IMG/VR virus record: IMGVR_UViG_2531839524_000004
Source: a virus
Taxonomy: Duplodnaviria; Heunggongvirae; Uroviricota; Caudoviricetes
Length of the DNA: 64,000 nucleotides
Reading direction: 5' to 3' (one strand)
The position numbers and the translations under genes are program-made. Shown piece by piece: positions 2,354-52,688 of the stretch (position 1 is its first letter; each line of letters begins with the position of its first letter). The notes beneath the pieces are model-generated. The model did not search any database. It was given only the letters and a program-made list of their open reading frames with translations, and was not told where the DNA came from.

Positions 2354-3022
2354 ATGACCAAGATCTTTGTGGTTGGCGGCACAAAGGGCGGGCCTGGCAA
2401 ATCCACCGTTGCCCAGCAAATTGCCGTTTGCCTGAAAGTCAAAAAGAAGAAGAAGGTTTATATCACTGATATAGATATTCAGCGCACGACAACAAGCTGG
2501 TGTGAAGACCGTCGACAGAACGAAGACCTTGAGCTGATTCCTTTTGCATACGTTCAGGATGACATCATTAAGCACCTAAAATCGCTTCAGGGTAGAGCTG
2601 AGTTTGTAGTGGTAGATGCTGGTGGCTTTGACTCCGAAATTCAGCGACAAGCGATGCTGATGGCCGACGTTATCATTATCCCGCTGCGTCCTAAGCGTCG
2701 TGATTTGAAATCTTTACGTGACATCGATCCTATTATCGACAATGTTCGTAATGTAAACGATAAAGTGAAGGTCCGCGCGGTCATGAACCAGTGCCCGGCT
2801 TTGCCATCACAAGTGTCTCGCATTTTGGCGGCTAAAGAGATTGTCGAGACGTTTGGCATCGAGTCTGCGCCAGTCAATTTATATAACCGCAACGTCTATG
2901 ATGATGCGGAAGAGTCTGGTCGTTCTATCTTTGAAATGACCGGTAGCGAGCGCGACAAAAAGGCGGAAGCCGAGTTTGAAGAATTTGTAGATTATCTGTT
3001 GAGTCTGGAGGAAGAAGAATAA
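2354..3022 (+). CDS. parA: ParA-family partition ATPase
   Basis: Deviant Walker A GGTKGGPGKST near N-terminus, about 220 aa; followed by coupled small gene. Confidence 0.75.
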   Translation: MTKIFVVGGTKGGPGKSTVAQQIAVCLKVKKKKKVYITDIDIQRTTTSWCEDRRQNEDLELIPFAYVQDDIIKHLKSLQGRAEFVVVDAGGFDSEIQRQAMLMADVIIIPLRPKRRDLKSLRDIDPIIDNVRNVNDKVKVRAVMNQCPALPSQVSRILAAKEIVETFGIESAPVNLYNRNVYDDAEESGRSIFEMTGSERDKKAEAEFEEFVDYLLSLEEEE

Positions 3023-3381
3023 TGTCCATGAAAATGGGTGACCTAGCAAAGCGCAAAGAGCCTGATGCACCGGCTAAGAACACAACTCCTTTGCGCCAAC
3101 CAGTCAGACCACAGGGACGCCCGACTCGTGGCAAAGAGAAAATTAAAAGCCGCACAATGTCACTGGAGGACGAATACTTCGAACTGCTGGAGATGATGAA
3201 GTTCATCCCTCGCTTCGAGAAGTTCACTCGTTCTGACGTGATTCGAGCAGCCATTTTCCATCTGGCAGAGAAGTCACCGCAGGAAATCGAGGACATCGTG
3301 AAATTGAATGAGGCGATCACCGCTGCCGATGTCACGATGCGTACCGATGAAATCAAACGAGAGTTGATGAAGAAAGGTTAA
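3022..3381 (+). CDS. putative partition adaptor / centromere-binding protein (ParG/ParB-like small partner)
   Basis: 119 aa, start overlaps parA stop (TAATG); basic N-terminus; position typical of ParA partner; no direct domain proof. Confidence 0.45.
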   Translation: MSMKMGDLAKRKEPDAPAKNTTPLRQPVRPQGRPTRGKEKIKSRTMSLEDEYFELLEMMKFIPRFEKFTRSDVIRAAIFHLAEKSPQEIEDIVKLNEAITAADVTMRTDEIKRELMKKG

Positions 3382-3386
3382 AAATC

Positions 3387-3417
3387 ATGCATTGGCGCGT
3401 ACATTGCGCCAATGCAT
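3387..3417 (-). terminator. perfect 12-bp inverted repeat hairpin, probable terminator for the convergent minus-strand gene
   Basis: ATGCATTGGCGC-gtacatt-GCGCCAATGCAT; on the minus strand it is followed by a T-run (complement of AAAAAT at 3381-3386). Confidence 0.5.
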
Positions 3418-3433
3418 AACTACAGTGTCAGCT

Positions 3434-4201
3434 TTATGCCGCGCTAACACTATGTTCAGTCCTAACCACCCCAACCTTCACAAAAGGGCTACCGTAGCTT
3501 GGTGGCTTCTTGATTAATTTGCCTACATACAGTTTTCTAATATGCTCATCGGCTATTCTGCCAACAAATTCATAACGTTTTGTGTCGGGGCCAAGAGCTA
3601 TATCCCTTGTAAAGTACTGCTGAGAACCGGCTTTGACCCAGCATTCAATCTGATAAACTTCCATTATCAGCCCACCATATGTAGCGTAGGCATATTTGAG
3701 ATTCTCGTCTCTTGGAACCTTTGCCCATACGCCACGCGTAGCTTCATATAATGCCAGAGCGGACATTCCTGACTTGTAGGTGCTGTTTAGCAGGAAGGCA
3801 AGACCGGCGTGCTCAGGAGCAATTTCAGTTTCCTCTTGCAGCACTAAGTGATGGTAGGCGTCCAGTGATATTCTGCCCATCATGGAACCACTTCCTCGTA
3901 CCTTATTCGTAAGCTCTCCGACCCCCATAAGGTCGATGCATGTCGCCTCAACAAGTTTGGCTGTGGTTTCATCCATACCATGACGAAGTATATCTATGCC
4001 TAATTTTTTATTAGCCAAAAGTTCTTTGATCCGCATGGATTTGGGAGAGTCATCGGGATACTTGATGTGATCGAGACAACGAGTCGATTTGCCTTTTCCT
4101 ATGTAAAACGGTCTTTTCATCTTGTCTTCTGTATCATAGAGACAGTAAACATAGTATTTAGCCTTATCCAATGATCTCGCGTATACCGATAAATCGTCCA
4201 T
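3434..4201 (-). CDS. GIY-YIG-type nuclease domain protein (possible homing-endonuclease-like)
   Basis: N-terminal YVYCLYD...FYIGKGK...R motif typical of GIY-YIG; 255 aa; isolated minus-strand gene. Confidence 0.55.
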   Translation of the reverse strand: MDDLSVYARSLDKAKYYVYCLYDTEDKMKRPFYIGKGKSTRCLDHIKYPDDSPKSMRIKELLANKKLGIDILRHGMDETTAKLVEATCIDLMGVGELTNKVRGSGSMMGRISLDAYHHLVLQEETEIAPEHAGLAFLLNSTYKSGMSALALYEATRGVWAKVPRDENLKYAYATYGGLIMEVYQIECWVKAGSQQYFTRDIALGPDTKRYEFVGRIADEHIRKLYVGKLIKKPPSYGSPFVKVGVVRTEHSVSAA

Positions 4202-6690: not shown

Positions 6691-7872
6691 ATGAGCCTTT
6701 ATGTTATATCAACATTTAGGTTGGTCACAATATTGCCTGTTAAAAGTGGAATTATCGTGAGCGAGCTGAAAGAGCTAATTACCGAATTAGATTTTGAACA
6801 ATGGTTGGATACTGAAGGTATCGTTTATCGACGTGGAGGCGTGAGTACTCGCGGTCGTGAAGTGAATATCAAGGAGTGTCCGGTATGTGGCAGCTCCAAC
6901 TGGAAGGTATATTTCAATCTGACCAGTGGCGTCGGTAAATGCTTCGCTGGTGATCATCCCGAAGAGATTCAGTTCAATAAGCTGGTCTTCCTCAAGCACT
7001 ACAGCGGCAAATCACGACGACAGTTCGAGGAATATGTGCAGAACGCCCTTCTTTCCCAGGGGTGGGCACCAAAGAAAGAAGAGCTAGTGCTTGCAAGCAC
7101 AGTCGAGTTAGAGGGGCCAGTTGCACTCCCTCGTCATTACGAGCTTCCTATAGATGGTCGTCTTCCAGACTATCTGGTTGAACGAAACATATCGCCTGAA
7201 ATGGCAAAGTATTTTGACCTACGATACTGCGTCGAAGGCAAGCACGCCTATGTAGATCCGTATACAGATCAGGTTAAAGGACAGATATTCGATATGCGAA
7301 TACTGATACCGGTTTACGATCTGGATGGGGTAATGAAGACATTTCAGGGACGAGACATTACCGGTACAGCAGAACGTCGCTACCTCTTTCCTATGCAGCT
7401 TCCAGCTTCAGGTAAGTTTCTCTACAACGGCCATAATGCAGTCGGCAAACAGACGGTAGTTGTCTGTGAGGGGGCGTTCGATGTTATGGGGGTCAAACGA
7501 GCTATTTTTGACGAAGAAACATTACGTGATTACGTGGAACCAATAGGAACGTTCGGGATGCATCTATCTGGCAACACCACTCAGGATGCAGAAGATCAGC
7601 TGGGCGCGTTCCTGACGCTCAAGGCGCGTGGATTACGTAATGTGATCATGATGTGGGATAGTGAAAAGCAAGCTATACGCAACACTATGGCCGCAGCTAG
7701 GCGACTCACAAGTATTGGCCTTAATGTCAAAGTTGCGTGTTTGGGCGAGGAAGGACTCGACCCCGGCGATGCGACACCGGGGCAGATTATCAAAGCCTAC
7801 TATTGCGCAAAACCTTATTCACGACAGCTTGAACTCTTAAGCAAGGTGAAAGGCATTGCAGCACTAGTTTGA
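6691..7872 (+). CDS. DNA primase (zinc-ribbon plus TOPRIM)
   Basis: CPVCGS...C...H zinc-binding motif and TOPRIM-like VVVCEGAFDVMG; start chosen at ATG 6691 preceded by conserved AAAGAAAAACAC leader. Confidence 0.7.
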   Translation: MSLYVISTFRLVTILPVKSGIIVSELKELITELDFEQWLDTEGIVYRRGGVSTRGREVNIKECPVCGSSNWKVYFNLTSGVGKCFAGDHPEEIQFNKLVFLKHYSGKSRRQFEEYVQNALLSQGWAPKKEELVLASTVELEGPVALPRHYELPIDGRLPDYLVERNISPEMAKYFDLRYCVEGKHAYVDPYTDQVKGQIFDMRILIPVYDLDGVMKTFQGRDITGTAERRYLFPMQLPASGKFLYNGHNAVGKQTVVVCEGAFDVMGVKRAIFDEETLRDYVEPIGTFGMHLSGNTTQDAEDQLGAFLTLKARGLRNVIMMWDSEKQAIRNTMAAARRLTSIGLNVKVACLGEEGLDPGDATPGQIIKAYYCAKPYSRQLELLSKVKGIAALV

Positions 7873-8901
7873 ACCAGTATTAGTCACGTAAACATTGACC
7901 GAAAATGATTTAACTTCTGTGTTGAAGTTGTCAGTCATTACCGCGAGGTAGGCATTCTTGGTATCTCTGAATTGCTTCAGGATGATTTGAACGTTATCGG
8001 TGCAAACAAACGAGGTAGCCAGATTGCCTCCTTTCTCTGAAAAATCCTTTAGGAAAGTGCAGTCAATTTTGCCATCATTAGCGGTGAAGGTGGCATCATC
8101 ACCCTGCCAGGTAAATGTTGCGTTAACGCCTTTATCAATGGATTTAGCAATAAGTCGCTGAGTGGAGGATTTTGCTTTAGATCTTGCTGCTGATGGTTGG
8201 TATTTACCGCTTTCTTTTAGTTCTGCAATGTAATCACAGCCATTTTTATCTTCTTTATCGCAAGCTGCCTGATAAAGCTCAGCTGCTTTTTTATAATCTT
8301 TTTTAACCCCTTCACCATACTCATACATAATGCCAAGATTCGCCAATGCAGATGCACTGCCTAGTTCGATTCCTTTTTTATAATACTCTATTGCCTTTTT
8401 GTAGCTTTTTGGCACGCCTGCGCCAACATAATATAACTGTCCTAGATATGACGCAGATTCAGGGTCGCCAGCCTCTACTGCAAGTTTGTGATATTTCAGG
8501 GAAAGTTTTTGGTCTTTCTTACCCGCAAGTCCTTTATGATAAATAACACCCAGATTGTGATAAGAGTTGCCTCCAGCTGCATCACCAGCTTTCTTAAAGA
8601 GTTCCTCTGCCTTTTTGAAATTTTTATCAACCCCATACCCAAGGGCATACATTATACCTAGAGCATTAAACGCTTCTTTGTTCCCCTTAGAAGTCGCCAG
8701 TTCAAGCCATTTTCTGGCTTCATCGTAGTTTTTTTCGACACCATGAATACCTTTCATATAGTCGATACCTAAAGCACTCTGTGACTCAACGTCGCCTGCT
8801 TTTGCCGCATCGATCAGCTTTTGTATTTCATAGGCATGTGCACTCCCCGAAACAAGTAATAGCGACAACATAAAGAAAGATATTGGTTTGAAATGTTTCA
8901 T
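7864..8901 (-). CDS. secreted Sel1-like repeat (SLR/TPR-like) protein with extra C-terminal domain
   Basis: N-terminal signal peptide MKHFKPISFFMLSLLLVSGSAHA; multiple repeats with A-G-x-x-Y-x-x-G pattern typical of Sel1 repeats. Confidence 0.7.
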   Translation of the reverse strand: MKHFKPISFFMLSLLLVSGSAHAYEIQKLIDAAKAGDVESQSALGIDYMKGIHGVEKNYDEARKWLELATSKGNKEAFNALGIMYALGYGVDKNFKKAEELFKKAGDAAGGNSYHNLGVIYHKGLAGKKDQKLSLKYHKLAVEAGDPESASYLGQLYYVGAGVPKSYKKAIEYYKKGIELGSASALANLGIMYEYGEGVKKDYKKAAELYQAACDKEDKNGCDYIAELKESGKYQPSAARSKAKSSTQRLIAKSIDKGVNATFTWQGDDATFTANDGKIDCTFLKDFSEKGGNLATSFVCTDNVQIILKQFRDTKNAYLAVMTDNFNTEVKSFSVNVYVTNTGSN

Positions 8902-13482: not shown

Positions 13483-13558
13483 GCCGGTTTAGCTCAGTTG
13501 GTAGAGCGCCTGCCTTGTAAGCAGGATGTCAGCGGTTCGAGTCCGTTAACCGGCACCA
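13483..13558 (+). tRNA. tRNA-Thr (anticodon TGT)
   Basis: Acceptor GCCGGTT/AACCGGC, D-arm GCTCAGTTGGTAGAGC, anticodon loop CTTGTAA, T-loop TTCGAGT, CCA. Confidence 0.85.
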
Positions 13559-13862: not shown

Positions 13863-14016
13863 GACACAGCGTTGAGCGGTTTGGCCTTTTAATCAACTCG
13901 ATTAAGACTCCGCTAACATAAACCAGACCGCTCAACGCTGTGATAGATAATTACGGCAGACGTTCTTAACCATAGCTTGCTAACATCCTAGCAACACTTT
14001 TTTCAGCGCAAAATTC

Positions 14017-14041
14017 AAAGGGGCTTCGGCCCCTTTTTTGT
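14017..14041 (+). terminator. rho-independent terminator closing the tRNA cluster
   Basis: GGGGC-TTCG-GCCCC followed by TTTTTT. Confidence 0.8.
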
Positions 14042-14054
14042 TGAACAGTGCAAT

Positions 14055-15317
14055 TTACTTTGCATAGTCGCCCAATTTTAATATTTCGCGCTTATATTCA
14101 TTAACCATGCTACTGGATTCAGTATAAATTCGATTTAAAAGATTATCGTTATCTTTATTTTCATTTATCTTAATTAGTGCTAATTTATATTCATAGTCAT
14201 CAAATGCCACAATTAAATGGTGGCCTGGGATTATATCTTCGTCACTCTTAAAGTATATATCTTCAAGTATGTAATCTAGTTGATTAGATTTTCTTTTCTC
14301 GATGTAATCTTCAGCCATAGCTATTACATCATTCCTGTCATTTAACCTGTTTTTTTCGGAAGGCACATCTTCGTAATGTTGCACGATTGAACAACCAATA
14401 AGGCGTGGGATGTAAACGTCAAAATGAGTAACTCTATCATTCGCGGTTTTAAGTAGTTCCTCAAAGTAGTTTCTTACATGTAAAGGCAACTTCTCAAAGT
14501 AATCATTAATTATAGGAGAACAAGGAGTTTTATAATTCATAAGAACCGACGGTACGAGCTTTGGGTGTCGAAACATCCAGTCCCTTTTAACGTCCGATGG
14601 AACATAATAACTTTTAATGATATTATCAAAATAATTTATCATTCGAGATTTGAATATTTTGTTGAATCTAAGGTTTATGAATGTATCCAGATAAGGCATA
14701 TTTGAATAAGCATCATCAAAAAATATTTCATCATTGAAAAAATCATATTTATTCAATAAACAACACAGTTTTTCCGAATTAATATGTTCACAATAATCGA
14801 TTTTTAATCCAAAGATAGCAATGATCAACTTCATCTGAGGTGGGATTTTAAAAATTAATTGTGACACATACGCTCTTTTTTCCTTGAGACATTCCCCATC
14901 AATATAAAATGAACCATCCACATACTCAAATATATTAATAATATGCTTCACATACTGTATTACCTCATGCTGTCTTACCAATGGATAATATAGTCTATGT
15001 AACTCATCGCTGTTTAAATTAATTTTGTGTTTATCGATAATTTGTTTTGCAAGAAGACATAACTCATCATGTTGATTTAATAAGGAATCAAACCATTGTT
15101 TAAATGCACTCTTTCGCATTTCGAACAATGATTCAGTTGTTAATTGAAGGGCTGAAAAAGCTGCTTTTGCACTTTTTCTCGCTTCGTAGGCATTCCATGC
15201 TGTTGCTATAAAAGCAAATGCTGTAGCCAATGTTCCAACAGTTTGACCATTTAAAACAACCCAATCCCAAAAAATGACGGTGAGCAGTAGTATAATAATG
15301 AAAATTAAAAAAGGCAT
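14055..15317 (-). CDS. membrane-anchored hypothetical protein, strongly AT-rich accessory gene
   Basis: 420 aa; two N-terminal TM helices; base composition much more AT-rich than flanking genes; isolated on minus strand. Confidence 0.6.
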   Translation of the reverse strand: MPFLIFIIILLLTVIFWDWVVLNGQTVGTLATAFAFIATAWNAYEARKSAKAAFSALQLTTESLFEMRKSAFKQWFDSLLNQHDELCLLAKQIIDKHKINLNSDELHRLYYPLVRQHEVIQYVKHIINIFEYVDGSFYIDGECLKEKRAYVSQLIFKIPPQMKLIIAIFGLKIDYCEHINSEKLCCLLNKYDFFNDEIFFDDAYSNMPYLDTFINLRFNKIFKSRMINYFDNIIKSYYVPSDVKRDWMFRHPKLVPSVLMNYKTPCSPIINDYFEKLPLHVRNYFEELLKTANDRVTHFDVYIPRLIGCSIVQHYEDVPSEKNRLNDRNDVIAMAEDYIEKRKSNQLDYILEDIYFKSDEDIIPGHHLIVAFDDYEYKLALIKINENKDNDNLLNRIYTESSSMVNEYKREILKLGDYAK

Positions 15318-15491
15318 GTATGTATTTCACTCTACTAACTATAAAATATTAGGCTAATGTTAACCAAACAATGCCTTAATTAATAGATTGATCGAGGCTT
15401 TAATAGCTTTATAATGCAGACTGTAAAGATAAGTATGCACATACCTATCTTCTTTGTAAGTAAAGTTGCATATCAATTCTATGAGGTAACA

Positions 15492-15737
15492 ATGACGATC
15501 ACTATCTACGGACGAGATAACTGCTCATACTGCAAACGTGCGGTCGAGCTGGCGAAGCAACTAAAGGGACATGGCTACGGTGATTATGAGTACATCGACA
15601 TCACCACTGCCGGTATCGACAAGGAAAAACTAAGTGAAATTGTTGGTAAACCGGTAGAGACTATCCCCCAAGTGCTGATCGATGGCCAACCGATTGGCGG
15701 ATACACAGAACTGGCTGCATACGTCAGCACCCTCTGA
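15492..15737 (+). CDS. glutaredoxin/NrdH-like redoxin
   Basis: MTITIYGRDNCSYCKRA with CxxC active-site motif; GAGG RBS 4 nt upstream of ATG 15492. Confidence 0.7.
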   Translation: MTITIYGRDNCSYCKRAVELAKQLKGHGYGDYEYIDITTAGIDKEKLSEIVGKPVETIPQVLIDGQPIGGYTELAAYVSTL

Positions 15738-15741
15738 TTTT

Positions 15742-15766
15742 AACGGCTCACAGGAGCCGTTTTTAT
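15742..15766 (+). terminator. rho-independent terminator
   Basis: AACGGCTC-acag-GAGCCGTT followed by TTTATT. Confidence 0.65.
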
Positions 15767-15947
15767 TCCCACCAAACTCACTCCCGTTTCCCTTAAAATT
15801 CAAAAAACAACGTCAAAATGATTCCATACCTACTATGTATGGAATCATTACTGAAAATGAGTTACTTTGACTCTTGATCCTATAAGAATCTATGCCTAAT
15901 ATACTGTTTACTTATACAGTGAATCGGCGTAACTCGGTGATTGTCAT

Positions 15948-17051
15948 ATGAAAAATAGCTTTGACAGAGCACGCGCTGCGGAGAACACCTCAAAAGAGGC
16001 GATTGAGTATCTCGAAAGAGCATCTCAAATGCAGGCCGTTATGATCTCGCAGGTTAGCAATGATATGAGATTCTCGGACGCATTCATGTTATTTACTCGC
16101 TTATCTCTGCTGATAACAAGACGTCGGCCGGAGATCGCTGTTCATTGTATTTTGATACATGTTTTGCCGCACATTGCTGATGTAAAAGTAAGTGACATTA
16201 ATAGGTTCATGGTGAACCAACTGGTCAACCCCCTAATACTGGATGGCAAAATTGTTATGGGCCGCCGCGTTTTCTCTCTGATGAAGCAGTTCCTTAGCTG
16301 GTGTGCCTTCCAGGGGATGATCGACGTGTCACCGTTAAACGATATGTCACTAAACAAAGTTGCCGGTGGCGCAAAGCCCACGCCTCGCGAGCGGAAGCTA
16401 ACCGACGCAGAGGTATGGGTGTTCTGGAATATATGGGACTACTTCAATGTGTGCGCTGGTACAAAATGGGCGGCCAGGCTATGTCTTGTATCCGCAAGAC
16501 GACCTGACGAAGTACTGCGGGCTAAAAAAAGTGAGTTCAACCTCCAGCGTGGGGTTTGGAATCAAGGCAAGAGAAACAAATCAGCCCGTGAGCATTCTCT
16601 GCCTTTAAGCACATTAATGCGCACATGCATTGAAGAGTTATTCGAATATGGTAAAGGCAGCCAGTGGCTTGTGCCTTCGAATAAAAAAATCGGGAAAGAT
16701 CTTCCGATGTCTAAAGTGGCAATAGCCCAGGCATTACGCCGTATCCTGGAACGACCAGAACTGATGGAGCTTGAGCCATTTACACCACGAGATTTGCGTC
16801 GTACTGCGCGTAGTTACTTCCCAGCATTAGGCATAAGCCAGGAGGTATCACGTAAAATCATGAACCACAGTCTTGAGGGGATAGATCGGGTCTACGACCG
16901 GCACGATTATATGGACGAGATGCGAGACGCCTTAGAAAGTTTCTCGACGTACATCGCATCAATCGTAGAGCAACCGGATTTAGACGAAATTGACCACAAA
17001 TTCAAGGGAGATCGTCTATCGACAGAGCTTATTCGTGTAAATTTTTCATAG
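15948..17051 (+). CDS. tyrosine recombinase / phage-type integrase
   Basis: C-terminal catalytic region with DLRRT box and NHSLEG...RVYDRHDY (His and Tyr nucleophile); first His of HxLRR appears to be Arg. Confidence 0.65.
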   Translation: MKNSFDRARAAENTSKEAIEYLERASQMQAVMISQVSNDMRFSDAFMLFTRLSLLITRRRPEIAVHCILIHVLPHIADVKVSDINRFMVNQLVNPLILDGKIVMGRRVFSLMKQFLSWCAFQGMIDVSPLNDMSLNKVAGGAKPTPRERKLTDAEVWVFWNIWDYFNVCAGTKWAARLCLVSARRPDEVLRAKKSEFNLQRGVWNQGKRNKSAREHSLPLSTLMRTCIEELFEYGKGSQWLVPSNKKIGKDLPMSKVAIAQALRRILERPELMELEPFTPRDLRRTARSYFPALGISQEVSRKIMNHSLEGIDRVYDRHDYMDEMRDALESFSTYIASIVEQPDLDEIDHKFKGDRLSTELIRVNFS

Positions 17052-25312: not shown

Positions 25313-26161
25313 TCAATATTTAACAAATATTTCATTAAGCCTAGGGTTAACTTGGTCATATTTATCTATGTCGTCTTTTAAAACTGAATGACATTTGACA
25401 CCAATTTCAAATGCTATCAATATCGAATTTATATATTGATTATAGCATTCAATCAAAGATTTAATATCAGATGATAGTTGTATCAACCGTGGATTGACTC
25501 TAAGAGCACTAATAACCTTATCATACTTGTTAAGCAACCCATTCAATTCATTAGCAAAATTATATGGATAACCATTTTGGTATGTATTTTCATCATCAGC
25601 AGGACCTAAATAATCACCAATGCACTTAAGTTTATTCTTAATGAATACAGCATCTTCAGTGGCATCTATATCATTTTTCGTTAAGAAAAGTTCTATCCAC
25701 TTGTTCTTGTCCGACTCTTTCAAAAGGTTATTTTCTTTATCAAAAGTAATACAATAGCTATCACTTTTTTTCTCGTTGGAAATACTAATCATTTCCGCCA
25801 ACTCGTCTTTACCTAAATGTTTCCAAAATATTACAGGGAGACCGTTGTCGTTTAGAAAAACGCGAACAATGACAATCGGATCATTAATACTTTGCCAATA
25901 AATTAAATTTTTAATAGGTACAGAAACTCTTAGTGAATCATCGATTTTTTTACTTGTTGTTTTAACTTGAACTCCAATAAACATACCTGTTGAATGACAG
26001 TTGTCATCATAAATCTCAACCTGAGCATCCAACCCCATGTCAATATCAAGAATTCGGCAAGGCCATACAAATTTATTTGAAATCCAATATGCGAAATAAA
26101 ACTCACCAGCATTTCCGTTAGCAACTCTTTCGATATATCTCATGCCCTGATCGTTTGCCAC
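25313..26161 (-). CDS. hypothetical protein with PD-(D/E)xK-like N-terminal motif (recalled DUF4365-like pattern); AT-rich accessory gene
   Basis: 282 aa; LDIDMGLDAQVEIY ... IGVQVKTT arrangement; isolated minus-strand AT-rich gene convergent with polymerase. Confidence 0.55.
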   Translation of the reverse strand: MANDQGMRYIERVANGNAGEFYFAYWISNKFVWPCRILDIDMGLDAQVEIYDDNCHSTGMFIGVQVKTTSKKIDDSLRVSVPIKNLIYWQSINDPIVIVRVFLNDNGLPVIFWKHLGKDELAEMISISNEKKSDSYCITFDKENNLLKESDKNKWIELFLTKNDIDATEDAVFIKNKLKCIGDYLGPADDENTYQNGYPYNFANELNGLLNKYDKVISALRVNPRLIQLSSDIKSLIECYNQYINSILIAFEIGVKCHSVLKDDIDKYDQVNPRLNEIFVKY

Positions 26162-34518: not shown

Positions 34519-34854
34519 ATGAAGGCCATCCCATTCGCGCTGTTGTTCCTTTCTTCGATCGTTGTGGCCGACACCACTGTTTATCAGTGTGAAATGTCTG
34601 TAGCCGACGTTAAGAATGGCGCTCTTACCGACGTCATAAAAGCACCATATGGAGCGATGGTCGTAGACAGCGGCGACCAGTTCTATGTTGTGCGTGACGA
34701 TCGAGTGTTGTCATCCCCATATCTCACAAATCGTAATGGCAAATTAACCGGCGTCGGAGAAGACCACTTCGTATACAACAAATACAAGGGCTTCTATGGC
34801 GTTCACGCTTCTCAGCAAAGCTACCTTTTCGATGACTGCAAGGAGGTTGGGTAA
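34519..34854 (+). CDS. hypothetical secreted protein
   Basis: N-terminal signal peptide MKAIPFALLFLSSIVVA; GAGG RBS. Confidence 0.5.
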   Translation: MKAIPFALLFLSSIVVADTTVYQCEMSVADVKNGALTDVIKAPYGAMVVDSGDQFYVVRDDRVLSSPYLTNRNGKLTGVGEDHFVYNKYKGFYGVHASQQSYLFDDCKEVG

Positions 34855-35066
34855 TGGCATTAACACTGGCAGGTCTGGAAATCGAGAAAACAAGCGGCTA
34901 CTGGCGTGCTAAGGGTTTCAAGCAGCCTGGCATTCTTGAGCGTCTGGAACGTGAAGATGGGTATATCGTCCACCAGCGGCGTGAATGGCGTATGTACGAT
35001 CCAGAAACAGGAAAACTGACTACAAAAGCCGGAACACTTTGGGGTCTGTTGAAGAAAATACACTAA
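34854..35066 (+). CDS. hypothetical protein
   Basis: 70 aa ORF coupled to upstream gene. Confidence 0.4.
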   Translation: MALTLAGLEIEKTSGYWRAKGFKQPGILERLEREDGYIVHQRREWRMYDPETGKLTTKAGTLWGLLKKIH

Positions 35067-35112
35067 ATGCAAACTGACTGCGGCTCGTTCCGCAGTCATA
35101 TTTCATAGTCGT

Positions 35113-35646
35113 CACCGCTGACAGCATACACAATCAACTACCGCTGATAGCATATCGAGAGTCTATCTCACCGCTCACAGCATACTTTACTCGATTTTTT
35201 ACCGCTGACAGCATACTTAAGAAATTGCATGAATAATGTGTCCCAGTATGGGTATAACCAGAACAAAATTACCGCTGGCAGCATACGAATGTCTGACATA
35301 TACCATTAATTACCGCTGATAGCATATCCAAACAAAAATTCCTCAATAAAACACCGCTGACAGCATACGTTCTATCAGGGAGTAGCAGGCAATAAATGCC
35401 TTTCACTACAAGCAATCAGCGCAATAGCAATAGAATGTTAGTGAGCGCAAACCTATATGGAATGCACTCTTCGAGGTTAGTAACCACTGGGGAGGTATGA
35501 CAGAGCATTGAGTGGTGATAGATGATTTACCGCTCACAGCATACGTTCATCTCACTATACCGCTGGTAGCATATCTTTAACCGTTCACAGCATACTTTTC
35601 AGAAAAATAGCCGCTGATAGCATACATTTCACCGCTGACAGCATAT
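35113..35646. repeat. iteron array (about 12 copies of about 17 bp ACCGCTGACAGCATAC), incA-like copy-control locus
   Basis: Copies at about 35113, 35149, 35169, 35200, 35270, 35311, 35352, 35528, 35558, 35579, 35609, 35630 with minor variants; downstream of Rep gene. Confidence 0.8.
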
Positions 35647-36740
35647 CAAAGCAGTTTGAGACTATTGGAAAGGATCTCAATCATCTTGATATTTTCAGGC
35701 GTCAAATTCTGCGAAAGTTCGGTTATCTTGTTGATAATGTTCTGTTTGGCATCAATTTCCCCAGCTTTCTCATCTGGTTTTTTGGGTTCGATGTCTTCAG
35801 GTTTTGGCGGTGCGACTTTGAGTTTTGGATTGCGGCTGTGAATCTGGATATAGATCGACCGCCCACGCTTAATCTCGCTGTATTCGAGATAGCCCAAATC
35901 TTGGAGAGCTTTTAAGCCGTTACGTATAGTCTGATTCTGCGAGCTGACATTCCTGCTACTCAAATTGAGTCGCGCACGCAATCGAGCAAGCGATACCGGC
36001 GCAGGCTTGGTTGGAAGACTTTCGATGAAGGTGTACAGAGCCTGTGCTGTTTCTTTGCGTGGTAGCTTATTGATAACCTTTAACTGCAAAAGAACCTTAT
36101 GGTCAAAGCGATATAGTTCGGCCAGCTTCGGTTCTGCATAGAACACCACCGTATCTTTCTGCTCGTTGTAGTCCACGCTATTGATGAGGTGCACCATCAG
36201 AAGCGAGATCTTGTTAGAGCCGTCGACGTTCTTTTCTTCATACGTTCTCTGGAAAGACAGAGTTGTACGCATGATCTTCAAAAGACTGTTTGTAAGCCGG
36301 TCGCGGAGTGTTTTGCGGATCTGTGACGATGGATAGCCACAAAACTTAGCAAATTTCGTGATGCTTAACTCGACACGACCGTTAGGTTCGCCGTATTCTG
36401 CCAGCGAACGCACAACGCCCACCCACGTTTTGAAATCATGATCCATGTCGAGACGAGGACCGGTTATCTTGATATCGGAATAGCCTTCAGAACGGGCTAC
36501 TTCGAGCTGGACAAGCTCCTTTGAAGCATCGATCTCATTTGGCTTGTTACGTTTACTGTATTTTGTTCCCTTAAGCGTGGGGACGAACAACCCCAGTCGC
36601 ATCAACGCAATTGGTTGGACTGTATTGTTGCTATTAGGGACAAGTTCCCCTGTGTACAATTCAAGGGAACCTTCTTCAAAGTTGTCGATGTTATCTTCTA
36701 CTTCTTTGTTATTTTTACCTTTTTTATTTTTTGTGGACAT
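35646..36740 (-). CDS. plasmid-type replication initiator (Rep) protein
   Basis: Minus-strand 364 aa ORF flanked on both sides by iterons; start set at ATG (MSTKNKKGK) with AAGGTG RBS because the longer track ORF would overlap upstream iterons. Confidence 0.6.
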   Translation of the reverse strand: MSTKNKKGKNNKEVEDNIDNFEEGSLELYTGELVPNSNNTVQPIALMRLGLFVPTLKGTKYSKRNKPNEIDASKELVQLEVARSEGYSDIKITGPRLDMDHDFKTWVGVVRSLAEYGEPNGRVELSITKFAKFCGYPSSQIRKTLRDRLTNSLLKIMRTTLSFQRTYEEKNVDGSNKISLLMVHLINSVDYNEQKDTVVFYAEPKLAELYRFDHKVLLQLKVINKLPRKETAQALYTFIESLPTKPAPVSLARLRARLNLSSRNVSSQNQTIRNGLKALQDLGYLEYSEIKRGRSIYIQIHSRNPKLKVAPPKPEDIEPKKPDEKAGEIDAKQNIINKITELSQNLTPENIKMIEILSNSLKLL

Positions 36741-36759
36741 GTGGACACCTTTGTCATTC

Positions 36760-36863
36760 AACCGCTGACAGCATACTTGATTTGCCGCTGACAGAATACC
36801 AAAAACAGTTGGCAGCATACGGTGAACCGCTGACAGACTATCAATTACCGCTGACAGCATACA
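36760..36863. repeat. iteron array (5 copies) upstream of rep, origin/incC-like
   Basis: ACCGCTGACAGCATAC-type repeats at about 36760, 36783, 36805, 36825, 36845. Confidence 0.75.
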
Positions 36864-36920
36864 TGAACATGACTTCAGACCAGGCGTGGCGCGGCTTACA
36901 GCGATCGGGGATCTTATTTG

Positions 36921-36996
36921 ATCTATATAAGGATCTATCTATGGATCTCTTTATTAGGATCTATCCTGTGGATATGTGAATAATTAAAACAGGCAT
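36921..36996. promoter_or_regulatory. origin-associated GATC-rich repeat block with DnaA-box-like site
   Basis: Six GATC sites within about 65 bp, mostly as GGATCT repeats; TGTGGATAT (complement of DnaA-box-like ATATCCACA) at 36988-36996. Confidence 0.6.
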
Positions 36997-37061
36997 TTAC
37001 TACCTTCGGCGCACCTGGTGGGTTATCGTTGCCTCGGCTAACAATCACAGAAAAATGACAT

Positions 37062-37706
37062 ATGGATCTAAAACGCACGCGCTGGGTTCGTCGTCTTGAA
37101 GACGGCTCCTACACTATCGAATCAAATTCCAACCTGAATAAGCAGAAGTTGCTTTGTGACATCTGCGGTATAGCGGCGAAGTGCCCGATCTACGAAACCA
37201 GAATTAAACTTGATAAGGCTGGTGTGAATTTTCATTTAAACAGTTGCATCAGGTACGTTCCATTACTCGCATTTCGTAAACCGATCATCGGATTGGATGC
37301 TCCCTACTTCAACACACTCCGTTCAGGTGTGACGTGGCGAGATCGTTTATCACCAGACAAGCTGATTTGCCTCGTATCCGCAGACACAGGGAAAATCATC
37401 CGTTTTGGGAAAGTAGACAAGGTTTACTCAGGCCCAGTAGACGAAATGTTGCGGAAACACAGCCGGTTTAATCATCTCTGTATGGGTGGTGAGAAAATCG
37501 AGAAGGTAGAAGAAGTGATCCGCAAATCCTACGGACACTTTCTGACCAAAGATAGCCTGCTCACCGCAATCTACATCAGACATGTAAAACGTGAGTTCGA
37601 CCTCGAATACCACAGCGAAGAAGAGCTTAACCTTGTTGACCCACGTCCAAAAGCTGGCGTCATAAGCATAAACGCAGCGCGTAAAAAGCCCACTGACGCG
37701 CTGTAA
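37062..37706 (+). CDS. hypothetical protein
   Basis: 214 aa ORF. Confidence 0.5.
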   Translation: MDLKRTRWVRRLEDGSYTIESNSNLNKQKLLCDICGIAAKCPIYETRIKLDKAGVNFHLNSCIRYVPLLAFRKPIIGLDAPYFNTLRSGVTWRDRLSPDKLICLVSADTGKIIRFGKVDKVYSGPVDEMLRKHSRFNHLCMGGEKIEKVEEVIRKSYGHFLTKDSLLTAIYIRHVKREFDLEYHSEEELNLVDPRPKAGVISINAARKKPTDAL

Positions 37707-52094: not shown

Positions 52095-52688
52095 ATGATT
52101 GCAGCCGAAAAAATCAAACAGCGAAAGCGCGACAACTCTCTTCGTGACCTCTGGAGAACACCTGACTGGCTGTTTTCTGCCATTCAACGTTATCTTGGAG
52201 TGACATTTGATGTTGACGTTGCCTGCAACAAGGACAATGCAAAGCTGCCTAATTTCATAGGCGTTGAGCGTGATGCTTTGAAATCTGAATGGGGACAGCC
52301 AGGTACAATTGCCTTCCTCAATCCACCCTACTCCAAAATCTCCCCCTGGATTGATGCGGCTATACGTGAGCAGGCTCCCGGAGTTACAACAGTGATGCTA
52401 ATTCCTCAATCCCTAGATACAAAGTGGTATGAGCGTGCAACAGAGTGTGCGAATGAGACGATTATTCTGTCTGGTGGCCGCGTAGCGTTTGTCGAGCCTG
52501 ACGTAAATCTGGGTCAGGTAGAAGTAAACATCAACCCAGGTGGCAGTATGCTCGTTGTTTTTCGAGGATTCTGTCAGGACGCTGGGCACTCTATAAGCAA
52601 GATCCCTTTGGACGTCATGAAAAGTCTGGGAGGGTATGATCCTGCGAATGTGATCAGGAAAAAAAGACCATCAAAGAAGGCTGCTTAG
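52095..52688 (+). CDS. phage-type N6-adenine DNA methyltransferase (Dam-like)
   Basis: Catalytic motif FLNPPYS (DPPY/NPPY class) and small size (197 aa) typical of phage Dam family. Confidence 0.7.
   Translation: MIAAEKIKQRKRDNSLRDLWRTPDWLFSAIQRYLGVTFDVDVACNKDNAKLPNFIGVERDALKSEWGQPGTIAFLNPPYSKISPWIDAAIREQAPGVTTVMLIPQSLDTKWYERATECANETIILSGGRVAFVEPDVNLGQVEVNINPGGSMLVVFRGFCQDAGHSISKIPLDVMKSLGGYDPANVIRKKRPSKKAA

Follow-up and report, generated by a model that had tools for sequence, protein, structure and literature searches.

Within a 64-kb stretch of viral DNA (the window, hereafter), we examined a minus-strand gene, rep (35646..36740), that is flanked on both sides by arrays of a short direct repeat. 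The strictly conserved core of this repeat, the iteron, is 15 bp long (TATGCTGTCAGCGGT in the orientation of rep) and reaches 16–17 bp with semi-conserved flanking purines; 5 copies lie upstream and 12 downstream of rep. Searching the 64-kb window for ACCGCTGACAGCATA with at most three mismatches gave 19 matches, in comparison with 1.54 ± 1.15 in 100 shuffles (maximum 4). Seventeen of the matches, all on the plus strand, fall in the two arrays, 12 at 35114-35645 and 5 at 36761-36861, and the other two, at 13522 and 58150, have three mismatches each and are at chance level. An earlier reading made from the sequence only had placed about 12 copies downstream and 5 upstream of a minus-strand gene, and our mismatch-tolerant count arrived at the same numbers. 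All iterons are located outside the 364-aa rep coding sequence, which disposes of the possibility, raised in the same reading, that the repeats are part of a coding sequence; small ORFs found inside the arrays were rejected as artefacts of the repeats.

The five origin iterons (36761..36861, minus strand) are the counterpart of P1 incC. Their cores, at 36847-36861, 36826-36840, 36805-36819, 36784-36798 and 36761-36775, are spaced by 21, 21, 21 and 23 bp, and they agree in number, spacing and position with the five annotated incC iterons of P1; by analogy, these are presumed to be the Rep-binding sites directly upstream of rep. On the other side of the gene, the proximal five control iterons (35529..35645, minus strand; spacing 21, 30, 21 and 30 bp) start right after the rep stop codon and make up the first part of an incA-like array, just as the first incA iteron of P1 abuts the repA stop codon. 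Seven distal control iterons (35114..35367, minus strand), spaced by 26–70 bp, are divided from the proximal five by an iteron-free stretch of 161 bp (35368-35528), which shows no conservation in the Klebsiella relative discussed below and for which we found no function. Three of the distal copies are missing from phage PhiR41_1. By analogy, we infer that the 12 iterons at 35114-35645 form an incA-like array controlling the copy number.

Beyond the origin iterons, the minus-strand features continue with a GC-rich spacer (36862..36902; 59% GC over 36866-36902), an AT-rich block with six GATC sites (36903..36965; 33% GC) and, at the outer edge of the origin, two tandem DnaA boxes overlapping by one base (36967..36983). 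The spacer sequence, GCCGCGCCACGCCTGG, is nearly identical to that of P1, GCCGCGCCACGTCTGG. The six GATC sites are packed within 59 bp (36903-36961), in comparison with at most three per 60-bp stretch elsewhere in the window, and clusters of this density are expected about 0.02 times per window by a Poisson estimate. Four of the six are within TAGATCC/GAGATCC-type repeats resembling the P1 heptamers, and in alignment the block falls opposite the five Dam sites annotated in P1 oriR; it is presumed to act as the DNA-unwinding element and as the target of Dam and SeqA. The DnaA box TTATTCACA at 36975-36983 has no mismatches to TTATNCACA and the box ATATCCACA at 36967-36975 has one, and both align with the two boxes annotated in P1 oriR. 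Together, the DnaA boxes, GATC block and spacer show 78% DNA identity to P1 oriR, with an alignment score of 103 in comparison with 15 ± 2.3 for shuffles; a blastn search matched positions 36994..36880 of the window to P1 oriR at 78% identity (E 7e-18). The sequence-only reading had recognized the six GATC sites, all of which are present; it was right about the presence of a DnaA-box-like sequence and wrong about the number, giving one where two overlapping tandem boxes are found on the minus strand. The upper bound of the region delimited in that reading falls in the DnaA-box region.

The rep gene encodes a 364-aa initiator of the RepA (P1/RepFIB) family. Translation almost certainly begins at the ATG at 36740, which is preceded by an AAGGTG ribosome-binding site 5 nt upstream; a 404-aa ORF called by PGAP from 36860 reads through the origin iterons and was rejected as the rep start. 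The protein is 46% identical to P1 RepA over 278 residues (BLASTP, E 3e-86), about 50% identical to RepFIB RepA over residues 24-309 (tblastn) and 48% identical to SSU5 RepA. In a search against RepA/RepE-type initiator profiles, as had been suggested from the sequence, Pfam Rep3_N (PF01051, WH1) matched residues 118-239 with an E value of 3.9e-9 and 37.5 bits, above the gathering score of 22.4. The gene described earlier as initiator-like is a real ORF, of RepA type by its homology to P1 RepA and RepFIB and by the Rep3_N match. Among seven aligned family members, Rep3_N was matched in all seven and Rep3_C (PF21205, WH2) in six (best E 1.3e-4); for the window's own Rep, the Rep3_C match has an E value of 0.13 and is below the cutoff, and a WH2 domain is likely. 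A two-winged-helix fold is predicted solely from these profile matches: an NCBIfam scan of Rep matched no family, sequence searches of the PDB gave no match with either the single Rep or the seven-member family profile even at E up to 10, and a single-sequence AlphaFold2 model, with a mean pLDDT of 40 and a pTM of 0.28, was unusable. The C-terminal tail of 55 residues (310-364) is absent in P1 RepA and common to RepFIB RepA, whose tail is of the same kind and ends in an amphipathic helix.

A putative rep promoter (36773..36802, minus strand) consists of a −35 element TTGGTA (36802-36797), an 18-nt spacer and a −10 element AAGTAT (36778-36773). It matches 7 of 12 consensus positions, and its bases align opposite the annotated P1 promoter PrepA (TTGCTA, 18 nt, TAGGAT). 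From this alignment only, we infer that the rep promoter could lie inside the origin iterons; a strict sigma-70 consensus scan found no minus-strand rep promoter. At the left border, the gene adjoining the control array is a cra-like ORF of 70 aa (34854-35066). Between it and the iterons is a hairpin with a 9-bp stem (35075..35098), resembling a bidirectional terminator; the homology shared with Cyrano and pGD31-F25 stops at 35083, and the hairpin marks the left edge of a swapped replicon cassette. An Rfam scan of 34800-37200 gave no match at E up to 1 and, therefore, no sign of an antisense-RNA control element.

The partition pair (2354..3381, plus strand) is 32 kb from the replicon. It comprises a small type Ib ParA ATPase of 222 aa (2354-3022, plus strand), matching Pfam MipZ, AAA_31, CbiA and ParA, and a 119-aa partner (3022-3381, plus strand) that has no Pfam match and looks ribbon-helix-helix-like when its sequence is read. 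This is the sole ParA found, and the par operon is not adjacent to the incA-like array. Pfam also confirmed a DnaB-like helicase, a primase, an ATP-dependent ligase and DnaE in the window, so that both the ParA pair and the replication genes named in the sequence-only reading are present. The replicon's neighbors are SSB and a 5'-3' exonuclease on the left, with helicase, primase and DnaE further left, and SbcCD-like genes, NrdAB and others on the right. The element encodes a phage-type Dam methyltransferase (52095-52688), as does P1. GC skew rises steadily over the window with the plus-strand direction of the genes, showing no switch at the origin, and is uninformative because the phage genome is transcribed in one direction. 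The gene set of DnaE, primase, ParA, RNase H, Dam, DHFR and NrdAB listed for the pSLy3/pECOH89 lineage (PMC3999498) is present. The earlier view that it is unusual for an element with a plasmid replicon to carry its own DnaE, helicase, primase and ligase does not stand, as phage-plasmids of the SSU5/pHCM2/pECOH89 family are described as having these genes (PMC3999498, PMC7969092).

The window comes from a phage-plasmid of pSLy3/pECOH89 type in the SSU5 supergroup, and the replicon is already known as the catalogued maintenance origin of the common ~110-kb E. coli phage-plasmid (SSU5/pECOH89 type). Across about 120 PLSDB plasmids of E. coli and Shigella, the full 2.1-kb replicon region shows at least 95% identity, and a 701-bp stretch with the control array has kept its length in nearly all of them. 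Overall, the replicon matches at 99–100% identity in more than 120 PLSDB plasmids, p09EL50 and pECOH89 among them, and in phage PhiR41_1. Identity is 99.7% to p09EL50 over 2101 bp, 99.1% to pECOH89 (compared as NC_023916, the same plasmid as HG530657) over 701 bp and 99.0% to phage PhiR41_1 over the aligned 97% of 2101 bp. The RepA proteins of pECOH89 and p09EL50 are identical (PMC3999498), SSU5-supercommunity phage-plasmids have been typed as IncFIB (PMC7969092), and the PlasmidFinder target IncFIB(H89-PhagePlasmid) was apparently derived from pECOH89. Two complete circular plasmids of 109–112 kb, p09EL50 and pECOH89, are typed with this replicon alone (rep_cluster_488) and have no other annotated replicon that could maintain them. 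Maintenance as a low-copy plasmid, proposed from the sequence, fits what is known of the element family, which is circular, non-mobilizable and ~110 kb in size and whose relative Cyrano is present at about 5.5 copies per chromosome (PMC9928086). A 2026 preprint on RepA-linked copy-number heteroresistance was put aside, as it concerns an unrelated 49-kb phage-plasmid.

Very probably, then, the locus is a plasmid-prophage origin with its copy-number control, belonging to the P1 oriR/RepFIB family and residing in the pSLy3/pECOH89 lineage of the SSU5 supergroup. This assignment draws on the sequence anatomy, the P1 homology and the replicon distribution described above; for DNA binding, origin firing, dependence on Dam, DnaA and chaperones, autorepression and handcuffing, we extrapolate from P1 and RepFIB. 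Rep monomers would bind the five phased origin iterons (36761-36861) and host DnaA the two tandem boxes (36967-36983), and the two proteins would jointly open the AT-rich GATC block (36903-36965), where a helicase would be loaded and theta replication would begin. The six GATC sites would make firing dependent on adenine methylation, and SeqA would sequester the hemimethylated origin after replication and so limit re-initiation. Rep bound to the origin iterons may repress its own promoter, located inside them, and the 12 downstream iterons would hold down the copy number in two ways, through titration of Rep and through Rep-mediated pairing with the origin iterons ("handcuffing"). Segregation would depend on the distant type Ib ParA pair, and lytic replication is the most likely role of the DnaE, helicase, primase, SSB and ligase that the element encodes.

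As the origin is embedded in a block of replication genes, the Rep/iteron origin might also fire during lytic growth, or bypass the host replisome by loading the DnaB-like helicase, primase and DnaE that the element encodes. The features examined in the window include no second origin, and the 55-residue tail of Rep, missing from P1 RepA, could be taken to point the same way. However, RepFIB RepA has the same tail on F-type plasmids that encode no replisome, and we therefore do not take the tail for an adaptation to the helicase or the replisome of the phage. The DnaA boxes point to the host pathway, and the lytic replication of P1 uses a separate origin (oriL/repL), which likewise counts against a double use; we regard it as unlikely. 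Quite improbable is also a more elaborate version, in which RepA, perhaps via its C-terminal tail, hands the origin to the element's own helicase, primase and DnaE, a single origin thus providing both low-copy maintenance and lytic replication, and in which the 1.8-kb block of Rep and iterons (35084-36900) is a swappable specificity cassette on a fixed DnaA-box/GATC opening module.

That the locus no longer drives replication, its repeats being repressor operators and the plasmid being maintained from another origin, is in our judgment very improbable. The searchable literature gave no replication experiment on this exact allele, and no strong rep promoter emerged from the consensus scan. Nevertheless, the rep ORF is intact, over 100 independent plasmids share the origin region at 99–100% conservation and have kept the length of the array, and the replicon is the sole one typed in p09EL50 and pECOH89. 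Moreover, the DnaA-box/GATC module is conserved with P1, and an operator array alone would not need one. Finally, labels for att sites are typical of automatic prophage finders seeking flanking direct repeats. Although the record of Klebsiella phage pJN2-26 (GenBank MZ779062) labels two iteron copies attR and attL, we give almost no credence to the direct repeats around rep being recombination sites and reject this reading, since there are 17 copies in the window and 13 in pJN2-26 instead of two, the arrays are phased and flank a RepA homologue exactly like the P1 iterons, the element is an extrachromosomal circular plasmid, and the plasmid and phage collections searched contain no integrated junction at the repeats.

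Taken as a plasmid-prophage origin, the replicon opens no new biological question. The value of the analysis is in the annotation: the rep start is fixed at 36740 in place of the 404-aa PGAP call, the "attL/attR" labels of a related phage record are shown to be iterons, and the origin of a phage-plasmid lineage disseminating CTX-M-15 in E. coli and Shigella is mapped to the base (DnaA boxes, GATC block and 5 + 12 iterons). Such a map would help in the construction of mini-replicons, in predictions of incompatibility among phage-plasmids sharing a host cell and in examining if variants in iteron number (12 vs. 9) alter the copy number and, hence, the dosage of resistance genes.

Among the known systems, P1 (oriR, incC, repA, incA; IncY) has the same order of DnaA boxes, GATC heptamers, GC-rich spacer, five iterons at ~21-bp spacing, initiator and control array. 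The incC-repA-incA layout perceived in the sequence-only reading is thus borne out, every element being present in the order annotated for P1 oriR. Sequence comparison argues that the resemblance goes beyond analogy and reflects common descent, as Rep is 46% and the opening block 78% identical and the Rep3_N profile is matched. The iterons themselves differ, TATGCTGTCAGCGGT in the window in comparison with GATGTGTGCTGGAGGGAAA in P1, and a different incompatibility specificity is therefore expected. The window has six GATC sites vs. five in P1 and 12 control iterons, all direct, vs. nine, six of which are inverted; its control array, unlike that of P1, is interrupted by the 161-bp iteron-free stretch. 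Its Rep has the 55-residue C-terminal tail and a longer N terminus than P1 RepA and, unlike in P1, there is no strong DnaA box between the iterons and rep. The par operon of P1 is located directly downstream of incA and is of type Ia, with a large ParA that carries an N-terminal DNA-binding domain, whereas that of the window is distant and of type Ib.

The closest non-phage relative of Rep is RepFIB of the F-type (IncFIB) plasmids. It has similar flanking iteron arrays and a similar C-terminal tail but a different iteron sequence, and it is carried on conjugative plasmids without phage genes. While all 17 iterons of the window share one orientation, the distal copies are inverted in P1, SSU5 and RepFIB.

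Within the phage-plasmids, SSU5, pHCM2 and Cyrano (pLF82) have their replicon in the same slot of the same backbone, between cra-like and ASCH-domain genes. The DnaA-box/GATC module is shared with Cyrano (90.5% identical) and SSU5 (77%), whereas the Rep proteins of SSU5, pHCM2 and Cyrano are only 44–48% identical to that of the window and their iterons differ, with a core around CCACTGTAGAGAG. In SSU5 and Cyrano, further iterons lie beyond the DnaA boxes, and the distal control copies are inverted. Judged from the alignments, 35084-36900 represents another allele of the replicon cassette. The Klebsiella pKPHS1-type phage-plasmids ("IncpKPHS1"; e.g., phage pJN2-26) have an 85% identical Rep, the same iteron core and five origin copies, but they have eight control iterons vs. 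12 in the window, and the sequences between the iterons are not conserved; conserved iterons downstream of repA have been described in this group (PMC6735626). The relatives with a diverged Rep, SSU5, Cyrano, RepFIB and P1, keep the layout and carry different iterons, and such covariation of iterons and Rep within a retained layout is as expected for pairs of initiators and their sites.

Scanning the 64-kb window for the repeat ACCGCTGACAGCATA, which is TATGCTGTCAGCGGT when read along rep, gave 19 matches with at most three mismatches, compared with 1.54 ± 1.15 (maximum 4) in 100 dinucleotide-preserving shuffles. Seventeen of the 19 fall into two arrays with a single orientation throughout; the two isolated matches (13522 and 58150), with three mismatches each, are at chance level. 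Twelve control iterons lie downstream of rep (35114–35645) and five origin iterons upstream of it (36761–36861; spacing 21, 21, 21, and 23 bp), exactly the copy numbers estimated in the sequence-only reading. The control iterons consist of five proximal copies (35529–35645; spacing 21/30/21/30 bp) and seven distal ones (35114–35367), with an iteron-free stretch of 161 bp between them (35368–35528) that had no match in an Rfam scan and for which no conservation was found in the Klebsiella relative. In phage PhiR41_1, three distal copies are gone through an exact 87-bp deletion from iteron to iteron (window 35114–35201 vs. L002 4115), leaving 9 control iterons in place of 12. The array length is retained in nearly all other close relatives in the PLSDB comparison, and the 9-iteron array could be a natural copy-number variant.

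ORF finding placed the start of the minus-strand gene at 36860, giving a protein of 404 aa; we rejected this start, which reads through the five origin iterons. An AAGGTG ribosome-binding site precedes the ATG at 36740 by 5 nt, the PhiR41_1 record uses the equivalent start, and the N termini of the relatives agree with it in the alignment; we therefore place rep at 35646–36740, encoding 364 aa. With this start, the iterons are outside the gene and noncoding, and the concern that the repeats might be part of a coding sequence falls away. The 404-aa Rep of a PGAP-annotated relative (L001 6647–7861; window 36741–36860) is an error of public annotation, the likely start giving 364 aa. In the profile search against initiator families proposed earlier, Rep matched Pfam Rep3_N (WH1) above the gathering score; within the family alignment, Rep3_N was found in 7/7 members and Rep3_C (WH2) in 6/7. 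Structural confirmation of a two-winged-helix fold was sought and none was obtained. P1 RepA lacks the C-terminal tail of Rep (residues 310–364); the proteins of SSU5, Cyrano, and RepFIB have it, with a similar amphipathic helix at its end, and as it also occurs in RepFIB, the tail is not specific to elements with their own replisome.

Six GATC sites are located at 36903–36961, in an AT-rich block (33% GC). Outside it, the maximum in the whole window is three per 60 bp, and a Poisson estimate gives an expectation of ~0.02 clusters of such density per window. Adjoining the GATC sites are two overlapping DnaA boxes on the minus strand, TTATTCACA (36975–36983), identical to TTATNCACA, and ATATCCACA (36967–36975), with one mismatch to it. 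GC skew across the window showed no origin signal. On the far side of the origin, past the DnaA boxes, SSU5 and Cyrano have a third iteron cluster (L004 912–999 and L006 900–1001, respectively), of which window 36984–37061 contains no equivalent. A phage-type DNA N6-adenine methyltransferase gene (52095–52688; Pfam Dam PF05869, E 1e-37) is found 15 kb from the six-GATC origin; P1 likewise encodes its own Dam. The predicted Dam-family enzyme could keep the origin methylated.

The mechanism of iteron plasmids has been reviewed for related systems (PMC6090056), and all functional steps of the origin are inferred here. Judged from the homology to P1 and RepFIB, the five origin iterons would be occupied by Rep monomers and the tandem boxes by DnaA, after which the AT-rich GATC block would melt and a helicase be loaded. 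Re-initiation would be gated by GATC methylation and SeqA sequestration, Rep would autorepress a promoter within the origin iterons, and the 12 downstream iterons would cap the copy number through titration and handcuffing. Solely by alignment with P1 PrepA, a weak candidate for the rep promoter was placed on the minus strand (36802–36773), with TTGGTA at 36802–36797, 18 nt, and AAGTAT at 36778–36773; a strict promoter scan did not detect it.

The remaining genes of the window fit the gene set of the family: a type Ib ParA and its partner, a DnaB-like helicase, primase, ATP-dependent ligase, tyrosine recombinase, CobT/AAA pair, DnaE, gp32-like SSB, 5′-3′ exonuclease, NrdAB, thymidylate synthase, DHFR, the phage-type Dam methyltransferase, and RNase H. 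The combination of a plasmid replicon with its own replisome genes, earlier considered unusual, has already been described for the SSU5/pHCM2/pECOH89 family; as in other phages, the replisome genes are probably used for lytic replication. Directly after the par pair is a perfect 12-bp inverted repeat (3387–3417; ATGCATTGGCGC, 7 nt, GCGCCAATGCAT) with no T-run after it, a candidate partition site or terminator. Three minus-strand genes, for a GIY-YIG (LEM-3-like) nuclease (3434–4201), a Sel1-repeat protein (7864–8901), and a DUF4365 protein (25313–26161), lie among the plus-strand replication genes and resemble insertions of accessory or homing-type genes. The GC content is lowest at 14001–16000 (34.8% vs. 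~45% elsewhere); within this stretch, a minus-strand ORF of 420 aa (14055–15317), with no Pfam match and adjoined by the tyrosine-recombinase gene (15948–17051), may be an acquired accessory gene.

The 2.1-kb replicon region is 99–100% identical to many circular, nonmobilizable ~110-kb plasmids of E. coli and Shigella, and 121 PLSDB records cover at least 80% of it. Among these is p09EL50 of E. coli O104:H4 2009EL-2050, typed as rep_cluster_488 by MOB-suite, where rep is annotated as "RepB family plasmid replication initiator protein". The same replicon is found in pECOH89 of E. coli H89 (NC_023916 = HG530657; 99.1% identity), and PhiR41_1, with E. coli MG1655 as the recorded host, is 99% identical to the region. 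We take HG530657 to be the reference accession of the PlasmidFinder target "IncFIB(H89-PhagePlasmid)". That target is named in 25 published papers. According to its genome paper, pECOH89 shares an identical RepA with p09EL50, and identity to the pLF82 protein is 48% (PMC3999498). IncFIB accounts for the majority of typed phage-plasmids, chiefly members of the SSU5 supercommunity (Pfeifer et al., PMC7969092), and according to a 2025 preprint the SSU5 (IncFIB) replication genes are already in typing tools (10.1101/2025.09.12.675607). Annotation pipelines and typing tools already list the replicon, which is widespread in sequenced plasmids; the novelty is therefore limited to a map at base level and the correction of two annotations.

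In tblastn searches, Rep was 48% identical to the RepA of SSU5 and Cyrano in the phage collection and ~50% identical to thousands of RepFIB RepA genes in plasmids. Five phased upstream iterons and a downstream array are also present in SSU5, Cyrano, two RepFIB plasmids, and the Klebsiella phage-plasmid pJN2-26, each Rep being paired with its own iteron sequence; pJN2-26 has a Rep 85% identical to that of the window, an identical iteron core, and 5 + 8 copies. Iterons downstream of repA were described earlier for the Klebsiella "IncpKPHS1" group (PMC6735626). The pJN2-26 record mislabels two iterons as attR and attL (L005 1378–1397 and 2648–2667). The left flank of the replicon, up to 35083, is 98% identical to Cyrano and pGD31-F25, two phage-plasmids of E. 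coli, and the right flank, from 36901 on, is 90.5% identical to Cyrano, the only one of the two where it is checkable. The block between them (35084–36900), comprising the control iterons, rep, origin iterons, and spacer, is replaced in Cyrano and pGD31-F25 by an SSU5-type cassette with a 44%-identical RepA and different iterons. The lineage therefore has two alternative replicon alleles in one slot, and by this sequence comparison rep and its iterons form a cassette that can be exchanged, with the DnaA-box/GATC module outside it. Among the matches listed, an estimated ~69 PLSDB plasmids have the left flank only (189 matching, 120 covering most of the query).

The likeness to P1 extends from protein to origin DNA. 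Rep is 43.5% identical to the RepA of P1 and P7 (tblastn in the phage collection, E 2e-64) and, in direct BLASTP, 46% identical to P1 RepA over 278 residues (E 3e-86). The P1 record AF234172 has, in order, DnaA-binding sites, five Dam sites, five incC iterons with PrepA, repA, and nine incA iterons beginning at the repA stop codon, and the order of parts in the window is identical. Window 36994..36880 is 78% identical to P1 oriR (blastn E 7e-18), the origin-block alignment scoring 103 vs. 15 ± 2.3 for shuffled P1 sequence; common to the two are the tandem DnaA boxes, TAGATCC-type GATC repeats, and the spacer GCCGCGCCACG(C/T)CTGG. The replicon is thus truly homologous to P1 oriR and RepFIB, and the element noted in the sequence-only reading is real and its P1-like interpretation correct. 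Its anatomy, homology, and distribution were observed directly, and its function is proposed from the homology. The iteron is TATGCTGTCAGCGGT in the window vs. GATGTGTGCTGGAGGGAAA in P1, a difference expected for replicons of different specificity. Among the control iterons, P1, SSU5, Cyrano, and RepFIB have inverted distal copies, whereas all are direct in the window and pJN2-26, and the par genes, unlike those of P1, are 32 kb from the replicon and of type Ib. A 70-aa gene before the control iterons (34854–35066), with no Pfam match, is labeled "P1 Cra" or "Cre-associated protein" in relatives, which suggests a second P1-related gene beside the P1-related replicon. For P1-like elements, IncY and p0111 alleles have been reported (PMC7969092), and the two replicon alleles of the window's lineage parallel these.
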